Assembly: GCA_963977015.1 (NCBI GenBank)
Contig: CAXBMO010000036.1
Coordinates: 1-46,688, forward strand
DNA: 46,688 nt
Reading direction: 5' to 3'
Origin: an uncultured bacterium
GTDB lineage: Bacteria; Verrucomicrobiota; Verrucomicrobiia; Verrucomicrobiales; DEV007
The translations under genes were made by a program, and so were the position numbers. This document shows positions 11,546 to 46,633 of the stretch, piece by piece (position 1 is the stretch's first letter; each line of letters starts with the position of its first letter). Under the pieces are notes generated by a model. It saw only the letters and a list, made by a program, of their open reading frames with translations, made no database searches and had not been told where the DNA came from.

Positions 11546-11938
11546 GATTCAGGAACGGCAATGAGAACGAACCTGAAGGAGGCAGGCCAATCCTGTTCAG
11601 GCGTTTCAGAGGGGGGCGGATTATTTGGCGATGCTGTTTTCGAATAACGTGAAATCCTGAACCATCGCGCTTAGCGATTTCGGGGCTGTCCAAATACAAC
11701 CATTCGGGAGGGTGCGAATCCCCTGTGGGCTAGTCGATTCCCTGTGTACGCTTCATCAATGCTGTTCCGCCAGCCATTTGCCGTAAAGGACGAATGGAGG
11801 TAGTCCTTGGTCGCGCGGCGGCTTCCGCGATTCTTCTCTGGCTTAGCTAACATGAACGCAACACTCGGTAGCGACTACTGGCTAGGTTTTATCACAAGAT
11901 AACTTTCAAATCATAAGAAACGCCTCGCTTCGCTTGGC

Positions 11939-11997
11939 GCACAACGGATGCGCTCATCCGACGCGATCAGCGTTCGGGGTGGAGCGCTTTGTTTGTC
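11939..11997 (-). other. Isolated attC site (59 bp)
   Basis: Minus strand GACAAAC-AAAGC-GCTCCACCCCGA...TCGGATGAGC-GCATCC-GTTGTGC: AAC/GTT core triplets, paired L boxes with extra bases, same length as the attC at 43316-43374. Confidence 0.7.
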
Positions 11998-37671: not shown

Positions 37672-38208
37672 GCCACACAAGGTTTGTTGTCTGCAACGAC
37701 CGCGCGAACGCTGTTCAGGATGGGTGGCATGATTCTGATTGAAAGGAGTTCCGCTCGCCTTGTCGAGTCTTTCGAGAGCAGACTCACCATTCTGATCCGC
37801 CTCGTTTGAAGCGCCATGTTCAATCTCCACATCTGCATTCAATCACGGACGAATGGCATTTCTCGAATCCCTTGGAAACGAGTCGCGAAACGAGTCGCAG
37901 GACGTTTCCACCAACGTTCTCTGAGGGTTTGAGCGCCCCGTGGTATTCAACCCATAGCCAGATCCTGACAACGAAGAATGATTCCTCAGAAAACGCAGCC
38001 CTTTCCGAACTGCTGCGCGAATGGACCGTCGAGGTCGAAGCTCCGCCAGGTTTCCGGCGCAGAGTGAGGGAACGACTGCTCAGAAGCACGGAGGCCTCAA
38101 CGAATCGCTCCCCGCTTCCATCCTGTTGTCCCTCCCAAACCCAGCACTTTCACTTCTCGACACGTTAGGAAACGTTCTTCCTTTGTCCCCTTGACGAAAC
38201 CTCAACCA

Positions 38209-38335
38209 TATCAACGTCAAGGGTGACCCGCCACCTACAGACAGCGCCACTCCGCAATAGGGTTAAGGGTTGAAGTAAACAGGATCATGTCGACTCGGGG
38301 CGTGTAGGCGGTTGGTATCCCCCCCTTTTTTCTGT
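38209..38335 (-). other. attC site of cassette 7 (127 bp, degenerate R'')
   Basis: ACAGAAA...CCGCCTAC...GTAGGTGG...GTTGATA; R'' should be ACAGAAC to match the cassette start GTTCTGT. Confidence 0.75.
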
Positions 38336-38876: not shown

Positions 38877-39003
38877 ACAGAACGGCAGCGCTGACCAGCA
38901 CGAACCGGGAGCGCCACATCACAGCAGGTAGAGAGTTGTAGTGGGTGATGCACTTTCTGGTCACACCGTAGGGTCCGTGTCTGTGTCCGGCGCATTGTTA
39001 GTC
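38877..39003 (-). other. attC site of cassette 6 (127 bp)
   Basis: GACTAAC (contains stop TAA) ... GTTCTGT with imperfectly paired arms. Confidence 0.8.
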
Positions 39004-39660
39004 TTCAATCTTGGTCAACGTTTCAATTGCATCTCGCGCGTACTTTACTGGATCAGCCTCGATACCGTCTTCGGTCAAGTGCTGAAATTTTGCAATTACG
39101 CGCTTGAGGTAGGGGATCGCTTCCGGCTCACCGATTTCTTCAAGCGCAAGAACGGCCATTGAAGGATCTATCCGCCGGTTGCAATCTCGGTCTAGATTTC
39201 GCCCAATGCGATGCAGGTATCGCTTGCCGCCAAACTTTCCCAAATATTCTAGAGCTTGAATATAATGATCATCTCCGAAAAGCGCACAACGAATCCAGCC
39301 AATAGTCCAATGCGGTGCATCCAGAATCGGCGCAATCCATTGTTCGACAAATGGCAGAAGATATTCGTTCTCATGTTCCATAGCTCGGTCAATAAAGTTC
39401 ATCTTATCTTCTGCACTGAGCTTATCACATTTATCAACAAGCTTGATAAACAAGTCCTTGGCCATTTGCGAATTGGCATTCTTTGCAATTGCTGAAACAA
39501 GAAAGGCAATATGCTCGACTTCCGCGTGGGAAGAGGCCGACTCTGCAAGTTGTTCTAAACGTTGTAAATACGCTTCATCTGCAAGTTCACGAGCTTCGTC
39601 ATAAGCGGCACGAGCGTCTTCTTCTTTCAACTGAGCGAGTAAATCATCAATGTATTCCAT
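38998..39660 (-). CDS. Cassette 6: HEAT-repeat-like helical protein
   Basis: Start MEYIDD (39660); ALEYLGKFG..AVLALEEIGEPEAIPYL..ARDAIETL HEAT-like motifs. Confidence 0.75.
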   Translation of the reverse strand: MEYIDDLLAQLKEEDARAAYDEARELADEAYLQRLEQLAESASSHAEVEHIAFLVSAIAKNANSQMAKDLFIKLVDKCDKLSAEDKMNFIDRAMEHENEYLLPFVEQWIAPILDAPHWTIGWIRCALFGDDHYIQALEYLGKFGGKRYLHRIGRNLDRDCNRRIDPSMAVLALEEIGEPEAIPYLKRVIAKFQHLTEDGIEADPVKYARDAIETLTKIED

Positions 39661-39667
39661 ATTGACT

Positions 39668-40090
39668 ATCAAGGTAGGGACACCGGTTGCCCGGCGCCCC
39701 CCTCACAGATCCCGGCGTGCGGATTTCCCGCACCGGGCTCCTCGGAGAATCGCGCACGTTCACGCTTGGTTCTGAAGTCCTGTTGGCTCCCCATCGGATG
39801 ATAAGATGGCAGGATTGCGCTCATAAGGCAAGGCGGGGTTGATAGGCGGGGTCGATTTCTTCCACCACCCTCGCGGGCGGCAGTCGCCACACCGTGGTCC
39901 ACCGGGCTAGCAGCTTTTCCCAGGTAAAGCTTTTGCGCTGGCTGCGCCGATTGAGCCATTTGAAGATCAATCCCTTGACCTCCCGCTCGTTGGTGCCCAG
40001 TCGCTGGCTGTTTCCCAGGACGCCGTAGTAGTTCCAGTGACCCATCAGTTTGGCCCGAAGCCGATCCAGGATCCAGTCCAACGGCTTATC
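39668..40090 (-). mobile_element. Group II intron 3' remnant (maturase X domain, domains V and VI)
   Basis: KLMGHWNYYGVLGN..KWLNRRSQRKSFTW X domain (stop 39821); DV GAGCCCGGTGCGGGAAATCCGCACGCCGGGATC (39740-39708); DVI with bulged A ending CCTACCTTGAT at 39668. Confidence 0.92.
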
Positions 40091-40440
40091 TTGCGTTCGT
40101 TTTGGTAGATCGCACGCAACTTGCGGGAGTTCGCCACAATGACTTCGCATCCCAACTTGTCGAGTAGCCGACTGATCCACGGGCTATGACTTCCCACCTC
40201 CATAGCGATCCGTGCTTTGGGAAAGCGCTTCACCAACATCGCCAACCGTTCCCTGGTATTGGGGATCCGTCATTTCCGCGACAATCTCGCCCTCCGCGTT
40301 GAGGGCACCTATGGCATGTTTGCGATCGCCCAGATCAATCCCCAAGGTCGCTTTCCGATCGATGGCAGGTCGTGTCCTTTTCATCAGCAGAGAGTCTATC
40401 AACCCCGTCCAGCGACGAGGCGCTCTGCCTTCTCATCTAA
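40091..40440 (-). pseudogene. IS110/IS1111-family transposase 5' remnant, frameshifted and truncated
   Basis: ATG 40384, LGIDLGDRKH..(+1 G at ~40268)..IPNTRERL..IAMEVGSHSPW..VIVANSRKLRAIYQNERK; DEDD RuvC domain cut just before KxDxxDA. Confidence 0.9.
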
Positions 40441-41513
40441 TCTTGTTCGGTGTTGTCGGCGTCTCCGTTGTCTACGCCGGACTGCAAATGGTCGTAGCTT
40501 AGATTGTGCCCCATGAAAGTAGGCAAATTCCATTCGCGGCAGATCTCCTCGTGCATGTTCGCCAGATTCTTGAGGCTAGACCAGGTAGCAACCAGATGAT
40601 GAGTGAGAAAAGTACGAACGATGAACTCCTCATCTTCTTGCATGCTTTCTGACAGCTTCTTTGAGTCCGGGAACATCTCTTGAGTGAACCCGCCCTCTGC
40701 TGTGGCTGTGTCGATCAAGTTTGCCGTGCGTGAAGCTAATCGGTGACAGTCTGCTATTGGCGTCCACATTGGGGTGGTCTCCCAAAAATCATACTCGAGT
40801 ATTCCCCGTAAAAAGTGGCGTATTGTGAGGAGTTCGGCGGACTCAATTAGCTCTTCGATCGGGAGATAAGAGAGATGATCGTGTAGATACCGGAGTTCGT
40901 GTTCTTGGTACGTAAACTTGGTGAATGCCGCGTAAAGTTTAGGGCGCTTCGCATAGAATTTCAGGGCAGTCAGGGAGTGTTCCTCGAGGGTCAGCTCATT
41001 CTCGATAGGAATCCAAATCGTCTTGTTCCCTTTCGACGAAAACGTGGGATCAGACGGCAAAACGACCTTGTCAATTAGGTCATTGAGGCAAACGAAGAAA
41101 ACTCTTCCAGAATTCAATTCGACTAAGAAGAGTACGACAGGCAATGCCGGACTCATTGCCTGAACTGTTAGAAGCTCACCGACCTCAATGGTCAGCGGGA
41201 TAACGGTGATATCTTTGGATTCATCGGGGTTCTCCGTCAGCGGCTTCTTCTCAACGTTGTAGAGTGGGTGAACGGAAACAGATCTCGTCTGAACTTTGTG
41301 CGTCGACTTTATCTGGCCGAAGAATGTCTCTCCAAGCGTGTCGGCTTTTGTTCGCTCTTCATCGACGTATTGGAAAAGCTCGACGGCAATATCAATTCCA
41401 TAGTCTGGCTTGTAATCGCGAATCACCCACTCTTCAGGAAGCAGGCCTTTAAGCACCTCACGGCTCTTATCCTCCATGATGTGTTGCTGAACGCGCCGTT
41501 TCGGGTGAGCCAT
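40437..41513 (-). CDS. Cassette 5: DUF4365-type PD-(D/E)XK-like nuclease domain protein
   Basis: LPEEWVIRDYKPDYGIDIAVELF..FFGQIKST; its R'' ACCGAAC (40445-40451) matches the cassette start GTTCGGT. Confidence 0.8.
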   Translation of the reverse strand: MAHPKRRVQQHIMEDKSREVLKGLLPEEWVIRDYKPDYGIDIAVELFQYVDEERTKADTLGETFFGQIKSTHKVQTRSVSVHPLYNVEKKPLTENPDESKDITVIPLTIEVGELLTVQAMSPALPVVLFLVELNSGRVFFVCLNDLIDKVVLPSDPTFSSKGNKTIWIPIENELTLEEHSLTALKFYAKRPKLYAAFTKFTYQEHELRYLHDHLSYLPIEELIESAELLTIRHFLRGILEYDFWETTPMWTPIADCHRLASRTANLIDTATAEGGFTQEMFPDSKKLSESMQEDEEFIVRTFLTHHLVATWSSLKNLANMHEEICREWNLPTFMGHNLSYDHLQSGVDNGDADNTEQD

Positions 41514-41522
41514 TGTTTTTTG

Positions 41523-41648
41523 ACCGAACGATTGAGCGATGTCACTGCCTGCCGACAGCGCACTCCGACTTCTGGGTTAAGGTTTGAACGTTCATTCGGC
41601 TTCCGACTCAGCGCGGGCAGGCAGTTGATCATCCGCGTCTTGTTCGCT
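41523..41648 (-). other. attC site of cassette 4 (126 bp)
   Basis: AGCGAAC AAGACGCGGATGATCAACTGCCTGCC...GGCAGGCAGTGACATCGC..GTTCGGT; near copy of 44545-44670. Confidence 0.92.
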
Positions 41649-42146
41649 GTTGGTGGTTCGAGATAGCTGGTCGACCTTCTTGAGCAGTGTGGGAAATCGA
41701 TACGATCCATGCATCGATGCAATCTTATTGGCGGCTTCCGCGTAAGACAACCCGATTGCAGTGACAAATAGAGGACGCTCGCTGTCGCCCCTCAATACTT
41801 CAACGGCGTGCTGTGAATTCCGAAACCGATTCTTCGCAACGCCAACTATAATCGGCTCGCCAGACAAGCTCTCTTCGAGATGTGCTCCTAGGCCACCTTC
41901 GCCGTCTTCCGATAGATGGCAATATCCGTCGATCACGAAAACGGAAACATCCTCCCGGATCTTCGAAATCACGGCCAATAGGGGCTGCAACTCGCGAAGA
42001 TAGAACTGACCTGGCGTGTAATCACCGCAGTCCTCGGTTGACACCGCATACGTCCCCATAGCGCGCTCTGAATCCCAACTCTCAAACACAACCGCGGCGG
42101 CAGTGGCCTCCGTATCGGAATAGTAAACATCAAGTGCGGCGATCAT
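41592..42146 (-). CDS. Cassette 4b: endonuclease V family protein
   Basis: MIAALDVYY, YTPGQFYLREL, VIDGY, GLGAHL, IVGVAK, RPLFVTA, MHGSYRFPTLLKKVD; ATGA overlap with upstream gene. Confidence 0.88.
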   Translation of the reverse strand: MIAALDVYYSDTEATAAAVVFESWDSERAMGTYAVSTEDCGDYTPGQFYLRELQPLLAVISKIREDVSVFVIDGYCHLSEDGEGGLGAHLEESLSGEPIIVGVAKNRFRNSQHAVEVLRGDSERPLFVTAIGLSYAEAANKIASMHGSYRFPTLLKKVDQLSRTTNSEQDADDQLPARAESEAE

Positions 42147-42709
42147 CGAATCCTCCCGTCCAGAAAGTGAACAGGATGTCCCGCGATTATCTGGTCGAAA
42201 CAGCCTTCGATCCAACGCGTAAACGAAGACTCCTCACAGAAGATCGGTGGATTCAGGGCATGGTCTCCCCACGAGAACACTCTGCCGCGATGCTCTCCAG
42301 TCACGATCAACGAGAAGAACAATCCGCAGCCGATCTCTGCGACTGCGATTGTGCCAAACATCGGATCCCATTCATTATTATCCCATCGGTTGCTCCAATC
42401 CGCTGGTGCTGCGCGGTCTAACCACGCTTCGCCGTGGCTCTCTGCCTCGGGTGTAATGATAGATGGTACAGCAATCATCAATGGATTTGCGCAATCAATC
42501 CAGTATGAGTGATCCCAGTGTGCCAATGGGACTAGGCGACATGGAGAAGTCCCACCATTAGCGACATGCGATAGGAAGTCACGATATTCATCTGGCAGTT
42601 TCACCCCGGCAGCGTTCTCTAGGGCTGCGATATCTTCGATCGCGATTGGCGGCTTCGTTTGCACTCTCGCCTTCCGAGCCTTTGCTGCGAGTGACTGGAT
42701 GGGCGTCAT
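42143..42709 (-). CDS. Cassette 4a: SMI1/KNR4 (SUKH) family protein
   Basis: IAALENAAGVKLPDEYRDFLSHVANGG..IAVAEIGCG..LIVTGEHRGRVF..SFTRW. Confidence 0.9.
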   Translation of the reverse strand: MTPIQSLAAKARKARVQTKPPIAIEDIAALENAAGVKLPDEYRDFLSHVANGGTSPCRLVPLAHWDHSYWIDCANPLMIAVPSIITPEAESHGEAWLDRAAPADWSNRWDNNEWDPMFGTIAVAEIGCGLFFSLIVTGEHRGRVFSWGDHALNPPIFCEESSFTRWIEGCFDQIIAGHPVHFLDGRIR

Positions 42710-42715
42710 TTCTTC

Positions 42716-42840
42716 AGCGAACGTTCAAGAGCACTCAGCCCTGACGGAGAGCGCGGGTTGATTGTGGAACAAACTGGCGAATCAGAAAAGTCATTTCAAC
42801 TCCGGCGCGGTCAGGGCTTGAGTGCCTCGGCTTGTTCGAT
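42716..42840 (-). other. attC site of cassette 3 (125 bp)
   Basis: ATCGAAC..GCACTCAAGCCCTGAC...GTCAGGGCTGAGTGC..GTTCGCT. Confidence 0.92.
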
Positions 42841-43317
42841 GCTTCGTTTGAGGGCCCGCTTCGCAATCTCAACGATCTCCTCCGGCGAAGCGTCCGATGC
42901 GAACTTACCAATCTCCCGGACTTCCCGTCGACTCGATTCGAAAAGGTAGATATGTCCATGCTCTAACTCGATACGTACGTCACTGCGAGGTTCGCAGAAG
43001 AACGAGAGCCGCGTAGATTGTTTGTCGTGCAATCGATCGTGTTTCGTAGTGACTGCGAGAAACGAATCTTTCGGATAGAAAAGAATTGGAGAGAATCGCA
43101 AGCCCTCGATCTCCTCTGAATTCGGATCAGGAGCGTCTTCCAGTTTTCCCGCAAAGGTGAAAAAGCACTGCCACTGCGCCGTAAAACCAGAGTGCTCAAT
43201 GTCGGGCAGCCCCTGAGAAACCAGTAATTCTCGATTGAAGATCAAGTCGCGCTCCTCCTCAGCTGCGCACGCGCAGAGCCATAGCATTGCGGCAATAGAG
43301 GTGACAATTTTCATCAT
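42811..43317 (-). CDS. Cassette 3: hypothetical lipoprotein
   Basis: ATG overlaps R' (GTTCGATG); MMKIVTSIAAMLWLCAC lipobox. Confidence 0.75.
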   Translation of the reverse strand: MMKIVTSIAAMLWLCACAAEEERDLIFNRELLVSQGLPDIEHSGFTAQWQCFFTFAGKLEDAPDPNSEEIEGLRFSPILFYPKDSFLAVTTKHDRLHDKQSTRLSFFCEPRSDVRIELEHGHIYLFESSRREVREIGKFASDASPEEIVEIAKRALKRSIEQAEALKP

Positions 43318-43374
43318 CGAACGTCCTAGTGCACGCACGCGCGTAGCGCGTTGCCGTGCCACGTCTTGTTCGAT
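43316..43374 (-). other. attC site of cassette 2 (59 bp)
   Basis: ATCGAAC AAGAC GTGGCACGGCAACGCGCTACGCGCGTGCGTGCAC TAGGAC GTTCGAT. Confidence 0.92.
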
Positions 43375-43384
43375 ACTTTGGTGT

Positions 43385-44512
43385 TCACGGTTTGGTTTTC
43401 TTCATCTCGTTGATCGCTTCCAAGAGTTGAATAGTAGCACCTCCATCTAAAGCCTCACCGTCGTATCGCACCTCGTATAAGCCTTGAAGATTTGATGGAA
43501 GAGTGACGCCACGTTTCACAAGAAGTATAAATCGCTTTCCATACAGAGCCATTGCGGCACCAATTTCGATCAACACATTTGGGTTTAGCACTACATGCTC
43601 ATTGGCCTCCTGATCAACTAGCTTCAACTCATCTTCAACGTGAATGATTGCGGCGCCGCAATCCCGCATATCATTCATGACTTTGTCAGGAACAGGTTGG
43701 GAGACGGATTGTCTCTCCACAGAAACGACTGCCTCCATCTCGCCGAAAGCTAGGAGCTTCTTGATCGGGTCAACGAACTTTTTGTTCTTACCGTGGGTAA
43801 TGAAGACCTTTCGATTGGCTTCCTTGGTTTGGGTTGGTGGTGGCTCCGAGGAATTGTCTTGTTCTTCCTCATCATCAGCAGGGTCTTCTCGCCCAGTCGA
43901 TGCTCCAAAATCTGCTTCGGAGTCGCCTGCATCCTCGGCGGTCTCCTCTTTGGTAGCCGAGGGAGTGACTCCTGCAAGATCAACATATTGGCGCCCTTTG
44001 ATTTCAGTGATCAAGCCGAGAGCTTCTGCACCCTCAATAATCAGAGCGAGGACGGAAGAGGTCCGATCTTCGGGTACGCCCATGTCATTAAGTACGTTCT
44101 GGGCAATACTGTCCTTGGGAATTGGGCTCCCGTTGTAATGAGTCAGGAACTCTTTCAGCACACGTGGCTTCAGCAAGGCCTCTCGCTTGGCTACGAGGTC
44201 ATCACCCTCCACGGTTGGCCTCACGATTCGCTTCCCCAATGGAGTAAGCGAGATCTCTTCGGCATTGTAGCCGCCATCTGTAAGCCCGTAGGCGATCGAT
44301 GCGCCACAGAGTTGCCGAAACGGGCCGGAGCCGGGTTGCACGTTCATCGCGGACGCAACCTTCAGTGGGGTTGCAGGTTTCGCGGCATAGTTCTCGCTTA
44401 GCGCCTTTGGAATACGCAACGCCTGCTCAAGAGAGTATCCGGGAACATCGGATTGGCTCAGGCGTGTCTGCTTCTTCTTCGGGATCCTTGCTGCTACTTT
44501 CTTCTTTGCCAT
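43385..44512 (-). CDS. Cassette 2: N-terminal wHTH/DUF5343-like domain + acidic linker + CAP12/Pycsar-type TIR domain
   Basis: KVFITHG..PNVLIEIGAAM..LPSNLQG TIR signature with catalytic Glu. Confidence 0.88.
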   Translation of the reverse strand: MAKKKVAARIPKKKQTRLSQSDVPGYSLEQALRIPKALSENYAAKPATPLKVASAMNVQPGSGPFRQLCGASIAYGLTDGGYNAEEISLTPLGKRIVRPTVEGDDLVAKREALLKPRVLKEFLTHYNGSPIPKDSIAQNVLNDMGVPEDRTSSVLALIIEGAEALGLITEIKGRQYVDLAGVTPSATKEETAEDAGDSEADFGASTGREDPADDEEEQDNSSEPPPTQTKEANRKVFITHGKNKKFVDPIKKLLAFGEMEAVVSVERQSVSQPVPDKVMNDMRDCGAAIIHVEDELKLVDQEANEHVVLNPNVLIEIGAAMALYGKRFILLVKRGVTLPSNLQGLYEVRYDGEALDGGATIQLLEAINEMKKTKP

Positions 44513-44544
44513 ATTAGTAAGGTGAGTTTCCTGAGATTATCTTT

Positions 44545-44670
44545 ATCGAACGTCAAAGCGATGTCACTGCCTGCCGACAGCGCGCTCCGACTTCGGGGTT
44601 GATTGTCGAATGATCATTAGAGTTGCGACTCACAGCGGGCAGGCAGTTGATCATCCGCGTCTTGTTAGCT
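44545..44670 (-). other. attC site of cassette 1 (126 bp)
   Basis: AGCTAAC (contains kinase stop)...GTTCGAT with long paired arms. Confidence 0.92.
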
Positions 44671-45999
44671 CTCGTTGTGCCGCTTTAGCGCGTCGGCAAT
44701 CAGTGGGTTTCTGCATTCGACAGCATCAATTCCTCGAATGAAGGAGTTTTCTTTCTCTGCGATCATCGCAACTATTCCATGGGCGATGGAATCCCCATCT
44801 TTGATCGATGTGATGAGTGTGCTGCATGTGCCCATGGCCGCGAAGCGGTTCATTGCATCCGCCCAGTCCACAGCGATGCCCAATGCCTGAAGGCGGACCG
44901 CTTCGTCTTGGCTGGTCGTGAACACGCTCCTCATGTTGTCAGCGACAACCTCCGCGTAGCTGAAACCGAGTCCGTCACTCGCGTCCAACGCACCCTCGTA
45001 CGCGTTTATGAACCCTGGCAATTTCTCAGCAAATACTTCTTGTGATATACTTGCGAAAAACCTTGGGTCGGCCTCGCGAAGAACAGCAAATAGTTCGGCA
45101 GGCTCAAGCGAAAGTGCGAGATCCATGAATTCATTCATCTCGTCACTTCTGTATTTCAGCGATTGCAGGCGATTCTGGATCGTATCGAACTGGGTACGCG
45201 CTAAAGAGGCCGAATTGAGGTTCCCGGTTAGATGGTCAAAGGCAAGCTCCAGTGCCGCTCTAACTTCTGTGATGGAACCAAAACGCTCGTTCGGAGGAAT
45301 TCTGCAGCATTTGTCGATCACGTAGTAGAGTGGCTTCTCAACTGCGCTCGGATCGACGAAGAGAGGGTCGCGACCGGTAAGCACCTGATAGAACGCTCGA
45401 CCGAGCATGAAAATGTCTGCGGCTTCCGATGCGCTCTTAAATCCCCCAGACTCGCGGAATTCAGGAGGAGTGTATCCCTCAGTGCCCCAACCCTGTTGGC
45501 TCAGCGTTTGACGAGTGCTGCTGTTTGGGTCGAGCGCAAATCCCAGATCAGAAATCACAACATTACCGCTGGAATCTCTTAAGAAGTTGGCTGGCTTAAT
45601 ATCACGGTGAAAATGTCCGGCTTCGTGGAGCGCTTCGACGGCATCACACATCGCGAGTAAAAGGCTACGTTGGGCATCGTAGTCTCCCGCAATCTCGGCA
45701 GAAGCGGATACGAGATCACCCTTCTCGTAGATTGGCATTACAAAGTACGGCGGATCATGTTTGAGCTCTGCGTCGAGAACGGTCACGACCATGGGAGACT
45801 CAGCCATCCCTTGCATGAGGCGAACCTCACGCCTGAATCGTTCCCTTAAGCCGTCATCGCCAGAGTGCTTAAAGTACTTTACTGCGACTTCGTCACCTGA
45901 ATCGCTGTCTTTCGCCCCCATGACGCATCCCATGCCGCCAGCGTCGCTAATGCAGCTAAGCACTTCATATCGACCTGCAATAACGTCTCCGATTTTCAT
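44665..45999 (-). CDS. Cassette 1: Hanks-type Ser/Thr protein kinase with helical C-terminal domain
   Basis: GGMGCV, VAVK, HRDIKPAN, SDLG, GTEGYTPPE; no TM segment. Confidence 0.92.
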   Translation of the reverse strand: MKIGDVIAGRYEVLSCISDAGGMGCVMGAKDSDSGDEVAVKYFKHSGDDGLRERFRREVRLMQGMAESPMVVTVLDAELKHDPPYFVMPIYEKGDLVSASAEIAGDYDAQRSLLLAMCDAVEALHEAGHFHRDIKPANFLRDSSGNVVISDLGFALDPNSSTRQTLSQQGWGTEGYTPPEFRESGGFKSASEAADIFMLGRAFYQVLTGRDPLFVDPSAVEKPLYYVIDKCCRIPPNERFGSITEVRAALELAFDHLTGNLNSASLARTQFDTIQNRLQSLKYRSDEMNEFMDLALSLEPAELFAVLREADPRFFASISQEVFAEKLPGFINAYEGALDASDGLGFSYAEVVADNMRSVFTTSQDEAVRLQALGIAVDWADAMNRFAAMGTCSTLITSIKDGDSIAHGIVAMIAEKENSFIRGIDAVECRNPLIADALKRHNES

Positions 46000-46007
46000 T
46001 TCTTTTG

Positions 46008-46027
46008 AGCTAACAGTATATTATTCC
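46008..46027 (-). other. Putative attI site (first recombination point of the array)
   Basis: GGAATAAT-ATACT-GTTAGCT; the core is the exact complement of cassette 1 R'' AGCTAAC; AT-rich and no attC hairpin upstream. Confidence 0.65.
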
Positions 46028-46633
46028 ACTTGAAGGGCTGATATCCAAATCATGAAATTGGACTTAAATGATTAAGGAATATGGATCGTTTGTCTTTGGT
46101 GTTCATGGTGATTCACGATGATTGTGGGAATTGTCAAGATCTGGCTGCCGCCCTGAGATTTGCAAGTGGACTAGCAATACGGGATTTTGCCGCCTTCGAC
46201 AAGGATGTTCCGATATGATGAGGAGTTTTTCTTGGCGCGGGATTTCTCACTTTTGAGATTTTTGAATTGCTCCCGGTTGATGGGGGATCTTGCAATGAAC
46301 GCATGAGGATCGTAGTTCATGAAGATTTTGAGGGGCCTTTGGCCGTTCATCACGAAGAGGCTTTCCGTGCGCTGCGATGGTTAGGGAGCGTCGGTCAACT
46401 TAGCCGGGTCTCCACAGGGGTTTGTTCCTGTGGAACAGAGGCCACCCACCAGCCCATTACCATCCATCCGCTCGCCCCGGGTGGCCTTGCGCCAGTCGCG
46501 CGCTGACGCCGTTTGGCACCGTCAAAAACCAGATCGTGTGGCTGGAAGGAGTCAGCGCTCCACCGGCATGAAGCCGGGGGGGCGATGGGGTTCAGGAGAC
46601 GGTTCTGGTGGTTGATCGAGCACCCACCGGGGC

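Follow-up and report, generated by a model that had tools for sequence, protein, structure and literature searches.

A group II intron relic in a Verrucomicrobiales cassette array points to a non-class-C intron family in the sense strand of the attC core

Introduction

In an uncultured bacterium of the order Verrucomicrobiales (GTDB lineage Bacteria; Verrucomicrobiota; Verrucomicrobiia; Verrucomicrobiales; DEV007), the 3′ remnant of a group II intron lies within an array of integron gene cassettes, on the same strand as the cassette genes and directly in front of a cassette start. The stretch of DNA analysed, referred to here as the window, comprises 46,688 nucleotides (nt) of contig CAXBMO010000036.1 (assembly GCA_963977015.1, positions 1 to 46,688 of the forward strand), and the remnant occupies positions 39668..40088 of its minus strand. 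This arrangement raises the question of what kind of intron was inserted here and by what route it reached the boundary of a cassette. The group IIC-attC introns (S.ma.I2 and relatives) have a CGC triad and insert at TTGT/T on the bottom strand of attC, the recombination site of cassettes, and so lie antisense to the cassettes (PMC7923331; such introns are described also in PMC4424553 and PMC8876359). An earlier interpretation made from the letters alone, called here the sequence-only reading, had instead proposed a non-class-C intron inserted in cassette sense. The evidence presented below makes it highly probable that the remnant is an inactive relic of a non-class-C intron family that targets the core of attC on the sense strand.

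Results

The relic and its 3′ junction

The relic is approximately 421 nt long and consists of the tail of a maturase followed by domains V and VI. The RNA part was recognized by the Rfam model of group II domains V and VI (RF00029; 39742..39668, minus; 44.4 bits against a cut-off of 40, E 1.3e-5), which was the sole gathering-level Rfam match within the window. Domain V (39708..39740, minus) opens with G-AGC, giving a triad of AGC (39739..39737) rather than CGC, and has a five-nucleotide terminal loop, GAAAU (39727..39723). Domain VI (39668..39705, minus) carries a bulged branch A at 39675, seven nucleotides before the 3′ splice site (39668^39667; the caret marks a junction throughout). The domain V triad and bulge and the bulged A of domain VI 7-8 nt from the 3′ end, as required of a group II intron, are all present, and across 14 relatives 8 of the 28 predicted pairs of the domain V/VI fold show compensatory changes.

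Upstream of these domains, a frame at 39821..40088 (minus) encodes the C-terminal X/maturase part of the intron-encoded protein, with the motifs GHWNYYG (40042..40022) and WLNRRSQR (39958..39935), a TGA stop codon (39823..39821) and a weak match to the Pfam family GIIM (19.8 bits, below the cut-off of 23). The 5′ GUGYG, domains I-IV and the open reading frame (ORF) of the reverse transcriptase (RT)/maturase are absent from the relic and present in a near full-length paralog on contig C6 of the same genome. BLAST comparison with this paralog showed 96% identity over 260 nt (C6 positions 1723-1982); the relic retains only positions ~1723 to the end and is without the first ~1.7 kb of the intron. 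It is dead, and can neither splice nor move.

The intron RNA ends at 39668 with ..CCCTACCTTGAT and is followed on the minus strand by AGTC (39667..39664), AAT and the ATG (39660..39658) of a cassette ORF encoding 220 aa with weak HEAT-repeat matches (38998..39660). The attC of this cassette (38899..39003, minus) begins with the R″ box GACTAAC (39003..38997), the complement of GTT plus AGTC, and ends with the R′ box GTTCGTG. The bases thus bear out the sequence-only reading as to the end of the intron, the R″ box, the AGC triad, the two protein motifs and the orientation, which is that of the cassette ORFs and hence top strand. The same reading had placed the insertion at GTT^AGTC of R′. Of this split core the RRRY part, AGTC, and its match in R″ can be read in the window, and the relatives described below agree with it, while the upstream half (attC arm plus GTT) is no longer in the window. 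Since a four-nucleotide match alone has a chance of 1/256, the assignment of the site rests on the paralogs and relatives.

Paralogs in the same genome

Six pieces of the intron family were found in the genome: the relic, a 5′ fragment elsewhere in the window, and copies on contigs C6, C28, C18 and C11. The C6 copy (343039 to the contig end) begins with GTGCG, matches the domain I model RF02005 with 55 bits, RVT_1 with 82 bits and GIIM with 24 bits, and has a FADD motif and one frameshift in a T-run of the RT. The 5′ fragment (11629..11942, minus; ~310 nt, beginning GTGCGCC) is 92% identical to it. The C28 copy (L007; 64158..63580, ~579 nt) is internally deleted; it retains both junctions (attC..GACGTT^ and ^AGGCTAAG), has lost the EBS1 (exon-binding site 1) region and the RT, and is probably an inert, ORF-less derivative. 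The copies on C18 (44438..44113) and C11 (158572..158870) are 3′ relics.

All three 5′ junctions in the genome consist of a hairpin followed by (A/C)CGTT^GTGCG. The C6 copy stands after a 118-nt canonical attC with R″ GGCTAAC (..CTCTGACGTT^GTGCG), the C28 copy after a canonical attC (..CTTGACGTT^GTGCG), and the window fragment after a 51-nt hairpin outside any array (..CATCCGTT^GTGCG; 5′ exon ..GCGCATCCGTT). This last hairpin (11943..11993, minus; dG -18.4 kcal/mol) has an AAC...GTT layout resembling a short attC. Fragment and hairpin together (11629-11993) are found downstream of a 2008-aa ORF, at a distance of ~130 nt, and well away from the array, and the fragment could sit either at a lone short attC or at a terminator-like ectopic target. 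The four 3′ junctions all abut a cassette start (AGTC..ATG, AGCC..ATG, AGGC..ATG and CGGT..ATG), reading ^AGTCAATATG, ^AGCCTCAGAAAATG, ^AGGCTAAGAAAATG and, on C11, ..CTTGTT^CGGTGG.., where the last intron bases differ and leave the precise cut ambiguous. In the window copy (contig C36) and the C18 copy, the cassette ORF is followed by the R″ that was expected.

Relatives and the pairing of intron with exon

A metagenome scan, for which a single C-terminal part of the protein was the query, gave 33 loci, and a scan of one genome per species gave 26, the closest being two Exilibacterium records with 46% identity over the RT query fragment. Relatives found in a plasmid search were at most 45% identical (Pandoraea, Klebsiella), and a protein search for longer relatives gave 1356 matches, the best 120 of which are at most 57% identical. 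The lineage is alive elsewhere, as 12 of 13 full-length members have an open frame of 523-573 codons with a YADD motif.

After removal of two duplicates, the 5′ junction was visible in 16 distinct loci, including the genome's own C6 copy (L006), and in 15 of these the 5′ exon ends in GTT. A canonical attC hairpin lies upstream of the intron in L006, L044, L054, L070, L010, L011 and the C28 copy, and ordinary attC arrays lie downstream of it in L053, L057, L063 and L066. Shuffle z-scores of whole attC hairpins were uninformative, their central loops being unstructured.

Alignment of domain I revealed a loop, at intron position ~290, that changes together with the exon. It reads AACGU(U) in C6, L043, L044 and L070, where all four exons end (A)ACGTT, and AACAGU in 12 loci, where 9 exons end (A)CTGTT. 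In Exilibacterium (L010 and L011) a canonical attC is followed by ..GGCGTTA^GTGCG; here the exon ends in GTTA, the insertion point is shifted by one nucleotide, and the corresponding loop of L011, UAACGC, pairs with GCGTTA. This covariation and the one-nucleotide shift identify the loop as EBS1, and show in addition that it is through base pairing that the intron recognises the conserved GTT. The sequence-only reading had expected 5′ exons of full-length relatives to end in an attC arm plus GTT, and had named two outcomes that would refute it, full-length relatives at non-attC targets and an RT grouping with class C; neither these junctions nor the RT tree below refuted it.

The 3′ side was examined in 20 copies with at least 300 nt downstream by searching for a stretch that complements the four bases opening the 3′ exon and continues with AAC, as in R″. 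This occurs anywhere downstream in 11 of the 20, against ~2 expected by chance, and at the end of the first ORF in 9 (C36, C18, L046, L052, L053, L057, L061, L063 and L069), usually followed by AAG or AAT. The insertion point is exactly GTT^RRRY of R′, two nucleotides 3′ of the integrase crossover G^TT. The earlier suggestion that the intron homes to the recombination point is supported as regards the R′ core, and off by these two nucleotides as regards the crossover itself. Because the intron lies 3′ of the crossover, it would belong to the downstream cassette.

Class of the intron

Domain I of the family matches Rfam group-II-D1D4-6 (RF02005; 55 bits in C6 and 63-185 bits in relatives) and not RF02001, which, with the AGC triad, sets the ribozyme apart from that of IIC-attC introns. 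The orientation also differs, as the intron follows ACGTT of R′ on the strand of the cassette ORFs rather than TTGT/T on the bottom strand. The terminal loop of domain V has five nucleotides in all 14 sequences (GAAAU, UAGUU, GAAAA or UAAUU). RVT_1 and GIIM were the only domains found, with no DNA-binding/endonuclease (D/En) domain, and with the ORF beginning at intron position ~397 and ~155 nt following the stop codon, the ribozyme without its ORF measures ~560 nt.

An RT tree was computed with a "quick" method from 38 RT-domain rows, after removal of the duplicates L041, L056 and L017 and of any row that contained stops or had under 200 aligned residues. All introns with RF02005 were split from the two RTs of class C type that this genome encodes, those of intron B on C18 and of an element on C17; the separating branch measures 1.4 substitutions per site and has a support of 100 in the Shimodaira-Hasegawa-like approximate likelihood ratio test (SH-aLRT). 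Of these two, which stand for class C in the tree, intron B alone is typed as IIC by its RNA. The RT of the family is 35-40% identical to them. Within the tree, a single clade (support 86) unites the ACGTT group (92) and the ACTGTT group (99) with that of Exilibacterium, the group labels of L047, L060 and L068, in which EBS1 was not seen, having been assigned by similarity. The FADD motif is confined to the copy in this genome, with YADD in the 12 relatives whose frame is open; FADD is given as a g2 trait by Toro and Martinez-Abarca (PMC3552965).

Taken together, domain I, the triad, the five-nucleotide loop and the RT tree indicate that the family is, by its sequence, not class C, as had been claimed from the domain V triad. 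The data fit an IIB-like ribozyme of the IIE/IIF type without an endonuclease domain, class E not being separated from class F. The designation "class E-like" is accordingly plausible in view of the loop, the missing endonuclease domain, the small ribozyme and the D1D4-6 match, with the same proviso as to class F. A mapping of the Rfam D1D4 families to intron classes was not found in the literature searched, save for one case of a terminator-associated phage intron, and nothing was found there on the class of Kl.pn.I5; the PDB held only LtrA, IIC RTs and a cyanobacterial RT, and hence no anchor for class E or F.

Intron B itself (L008; C18 ~47072 to ~45170, minus) matches RF02001 with 141 bits and RF01998 with 71 bits and encodes an intact 475-aa RT/maturase. 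It lies in cassette sense, directly after an attC-like hairpin ending ..GGTTGTTG^GTGCGCC. A terminator-associated IIC phage intron matches D1D4-3 and then D1D4-1 (PMC12350094), as intron B does (RF02001, then RF01998).

A sister subclade beside integrase genes

The 5′ exons of the ACTGTT type share ..AATA(A/T)(A/T)ACTGTT, and in most of them the attC layout is missing. Five loci of this type have at least 600 nt upstream, and in three of the five a divergent integron integrase gene is found 150-270 nt away: the C-terminal half of an integrase in L063 (TIGR02249, 210 bits), the N-terminal part of one in L049 (55 bits), and in L057 an N-terminal extension that is 77% identical to that of L063 and 46% identical to that of L049. 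In the other two, L050 and L055, no integrase was found in that region. The sister subclade (EBS1 AACAGU at ACTGTT) looks like one specific for attI, the primary recombination site of integrons; an intron at attI was not reported in the literature searched on integrons and group II introns. In L063 (679-1980, minus) the integrase gene appears to be split: its N- and C-terminal parts differ in frame, and a separate open frame of 120 codons lies between them. L048 and L054 have the attI-type EBS1 behind ordinary attC ends, as would be expected if the integrase had added a cassette upstream of an intron-bearing first cassette.

The window array has an attI-like leader of its own, free of introns (ATATACTGTT^AGCT; 46008..46021, minus), at which the first cassette starts. 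Its motif (ATACTGTT) recurs in the 5′ exons of AACAGU-type introns. In this genome GGAATAATATACTGTT^[AC]G.. was found unoccupied at three places (window 46021..46012, C19 70414 and C41 194), each time before a different first cassette, and the leader of ~250 nt is 94% identical between C36 and C19. The leader copies (window 46008-46260, C19 ~70160-70414, C41 ~1-194) all end in AATAATATACTGTT, have no adjoining integrase gene, and look like orphan attI sites with a possible promoter (TTGACA..).

Integrase, array and cassettes

One integron integrase was identified in the genome (TIGR02249, 291 bits; match C1 216518-217420). Its gene, C1 216020-217423, has a long N-terminal extension and an open frame of 468 codons; a large gene on the opposite strand abuts it, and no cassette array was found beside it. 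Beside the window array, no integrase gene was found in the 670 nt of contig remaining beyond the attI-like leader; the contig ends there in GGGCTCTCCTCC repeats.

The array itself is real. Besides the site at 39003..38899, five attC sites with R″ and R′ cores lie between 38.2 and 44.7 kb on the minus strand, four of which (44670..44545, the short 43374..43316, 42840..42716 and 41648..41523) were located intact by a simple attC finder and a further one, near 38330..38205, by eye. As this finder also gives false sites inside ORFs, only intergenic sites were kept. R″ boxes in ..AAC and R′ boxes in GTT.. enclose an imperfect hairpin, and the first TTRRRY of each cassette complements that cassette's own R″. 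Several of the cassettes within 40437-45999 (minus) encode defence-like or signalling domains of small, mutually unrelated function, namely DUF4365 (40437-41513), a two-gene cassette (41592-42709) where a SUKH/SMI1 protein and an endonuclease V-like ORF overlap, a CAP12/Pycsar-type TIR domain (43385-44512) and a Ser/Thr kinase (44665-45999).

Fate of the window copy

The relic is broken at ~40088/40089, where it is joined to the first ~350 nt of an IS110-family insertion sequence (IS). The truncated element (40089..40440, minus) consists of the left end and about the first 100 transposase codons, with a 1-nt frameshift near 40267, an indel relative to the other IS copies; it is 95.5% identical to a full copy on C18, whose product of 354 aa matches DEDD_Tnp_IS110 and Transposase_20. 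It had entered the attC of the upstream cassette directly after R″ (ACCGAACAAGA^TTAGATG), and what is left of that attC is R″ ACCGAAC plus AAGA (40441..40451, minus), cut by the IS. The point of entry, after R″ ..AACAAGA, is identical in all three copies whose flanks were read (window 40440, C18 49127 and C18 43633); a fourth, partial copy (C19 70876) was not among these. In this fixed entry into attC after R″ AACAAGA the element resembles those members of the IS110 family that make up the IS1111-attC subgroup. As a DNA transposon it forms no part of the intron, and is relevant here since the IS and a deletion destroyed the window copy.

The order of events would be as follows. The attC belonging to the cassette at 40437..41513 had received the intron and, just after R″, the IS; a later single deletion may then have taken away what remained of the IS and of this attC, its GTT included, together with ~1.7 kb from the start of the intron, leaving maturase tail, domain V and domain VI before the next cassette. 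Relic, IS fragment and deletion have together fused two cassettes and destroyed one attC.

The fusion of IS and intron is spanned without differences by contigs of two public sequencing runs (X1 and X2), which are possibly the source sample, so that the bridging contigs are not independent support. In other runs, loose contig ends at 39666-39668 join an identical intron end to further cassette starts (..AGGCTAAGAAAATG.. and CGCTCCAAAAATG..). A joint allele was not found in contigs of X1, X2, X5 and X6.

Discussion

The family as an attC-core intron

The paralogs and relatives suggest how the intron may have reached the cassette boundary. We propose that the family retrohomes on the top strand, in cassette sense, and that its target is the core conserved in integron recombination sites, the R′ box of attC being entered after GTT and before RRRY. 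Recognition would depend mainly on the EBS1 loop of domain I (5′-AACGU), predicted to pair with the last five exon bases (5′-ACGUU), that is, the spacer between L′ and R′ plus the invariant GTT, and the upstream attC hairpin may assist, as for class C introns. The substrate would be the top strand of attC in single-stranded form, as with other introns that lack an endonuclease domain. This retrohoming route and the part given to the hairpin are proposals drawn from the analysis as a whole; complete members of the lineage may be spliced from array transcripts and may be carried along by the integrase.

Several observations weigh against this account. Its own 5′ junction is lost, and GTT^AGTC is here reconstructed, not seen. 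Among the copies of this genome the R″ complement is perfect in two of four, matching at 6 of 7 positions on C11 and not at all on C28, and the 11942 fragment stands outside the array after a short hairpin, so that the target is possibly "hairpin + CGTT" and not attC as such. The 5′ exon of L067 is without GTT, and its loop, AACAGU, does not pair with it; L048 (GCGTT) and L054 (TCGTT), with the same loop, pair at GTT only. EBS3 was not identified, as a covariation search found no alignment column that complements the first base of the 3′ exon. The tree was made by a quick method, and the branch joining the three integron-associated groups has an SH-aLRT of 86, not of at least 95. Finally, an empty-site allele was not found in contigs of four runs (X1, X2, X5 and X6), and among the sequencing runs listed as carrying the sequence none is RNA.

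Alternative explanations

Of the alternatives, the one that survives best, though we consider it improbable, is that the family targets any hairpin followed by CGTT, including terminator-like sites such as class C introns use, attC being merely the commonest such site and no adaptation to integrons being involved. The 11942 fragment downstream of the 2008-aa gene and the other hairpins upstream of L065, L055 and L050 are what this would predict. However, the AAC...GTT layout of the 51-nt hairpin is itself that of the short attC at 43374..43316, the 3′ exons are cassette starts and open with bases complementary to R″ of the same cassette, and the sister subclade lies beside integrase genes in three of the five loci with sufficient upstream sequence.

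A slightly poorer prospect is that introns came to cassette boundaries mainly through the integron integrase, by a single entry (for instance at attI) followed by travel as the leader of a cassette, 3′ of G^TT. Consistent with this, L048 and L054 have EBS1 AACAGU and yet stand after attC ends with which they pair only at GTT, and the RT domains of L054 and L057 are identical while their 5′ flanks differ (attC in one, an ACTGTT leader in the other). Against it, four 3′ exons and three 5′ exons, all distinct, were read from the copies in this genome, a whole subclade has its EBS1 retuned to ACGUU with sites that match in 4/4 cases, one copy lies outside any array, and Exilibacterium has a third EBS1 with a shifted insertion point; the independent cassettes seen behind near-identical introns likewise speak against carriage as the sole cause. 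In view of the varied exons, the retuned EBS1, the copy outside the array and the Exilibacterium shift, carriage by the integrase may add to retrohoming and not replace it.

That the family is a divergent member of the IIC-attC lineage in the other orientation is very improbable, since the features it shares with that lineage (attC as target, an RT without endonuclease domain, a small ribozyme, a hairpin just upstream) and the existence of sense-oriented IIC introns (intron B on C18, and a case in E. cloacae cited in PMC7923331) are outweighed by the AGC triad, the RF02005 domain I, the long and fully supported branch of its RT, and IBS1/IBS3 (intron-binding sites) of ACGTT/A rather than TTGT/T.

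Retrohoming to the sense strand of attC remains the preferred account, and a broader version of it can be offered tentatively, with somewhat less than even confidence. Here an IIB-like clade would have specialised on the integron system by retuning the single EBS1 loop of 5-6 nt to the R′ box of attC (ACGTT^ and GCGTTA^) and to attI (ACTGTT^), always in cassette sense and 2-3 nt 3′ of G^TT; its members could be spliced from transcripts of the cassette promoter Pc and, having become the leader of the cassette downstream, could be carried by the integrase as cargo, and L048 and L054 would be footprints of integrase moves. If so, splicing from Pc-driven array transcripts would make the introns nearly harmless, and they would enjoy two layers of mobility, retrohoming and cassette recombination. 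If the attI-type sublineage is real, introns would stand between the cassette promoter and the first cassette, and expression of the integron would depend on splicing.

Comparison with known systems

The relic itself is ordinary; what makes it useful is that it points to a lineage which is real and only in part described. Non-class-C, sense-strand introns in cassette arrays are already in print in the work of Sonbol and Siam (2021, PMC7923331), which partly anticipates the present findings. That paper describes class E fragments, H.ha.F1 and H.ha.F2, in a cluster of attC sites lacking an integrase (CALIN) of Halorhodospira halochloris, on the same (leading) strand as the top strand of the cassettes, and a CL1/IIB1 intron, UHB.I2, after an attC and in cassette orientation. 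Like the relic, the H.ha. pair are 5′-truncated, non-class-C introns of IIB type in arrays, with attC-like structures upstream; the comparison is by description only, and PMC7923331 had no 5′ junction for them, nor did it report a conserved exon motif or derive an EBS1 match to the attC core. Neither the precise insertion site and the code of EBS1 nor the clade with its attI subclade was found in the texts consulted.

With the IIE/IIF introns Cl.be.I2, Pe.th.I2 and Ge.ur.I1 (Nagy et al. 2013, PMC3753933), which have a five-nucleotide domain V loop and an IIB-like ribozyme of 450-700 nt, the family shares that loop, a small IIB-like ribozyme (~560 nt) and an RT without endonuclease domain. In vitro, EBS1-IBS1 pairing is essential and EBS2-IBS2 pairing dispensable in these introns (PMC3753933). 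They are presented there as ordinary homing introns, with no integron target mentioned in the text consulted.

Sense-oriented class C introns, namely intron B and the one case in an integron that PMC7923331 cites from Enterobacter cloacae (its reference 31), resemble the family in lying on the top strand, in cassette sense, after an attC-type hairpin ending in GTT; intron B differs from it in its class C RNA and in an RT of 35% identity. The IIC-attC introns proper share with the family the lack of an endonuclease domain, an attC target next to a folded stem-loop and a short IBS1 that includes the conserved GTT. As described in the sources cited, they have a class C ribozyme with CGC, enter the R″ side on the bottom strand and are not spliceable from an array transcript, whereas the family described here has an AGC triad and a D1D4-6 domain I and follows ACGTT of R′ on the top strand, in cassette sense. 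Such introns would constitute a natural set with a very short, readable target code. A second, unrelated class of ribozyme would use base pairing to reach the same three-nucleotide core, here on the opposite strand and in an orientation that permits splicing, and would represent convergent exploitation of integron sites.

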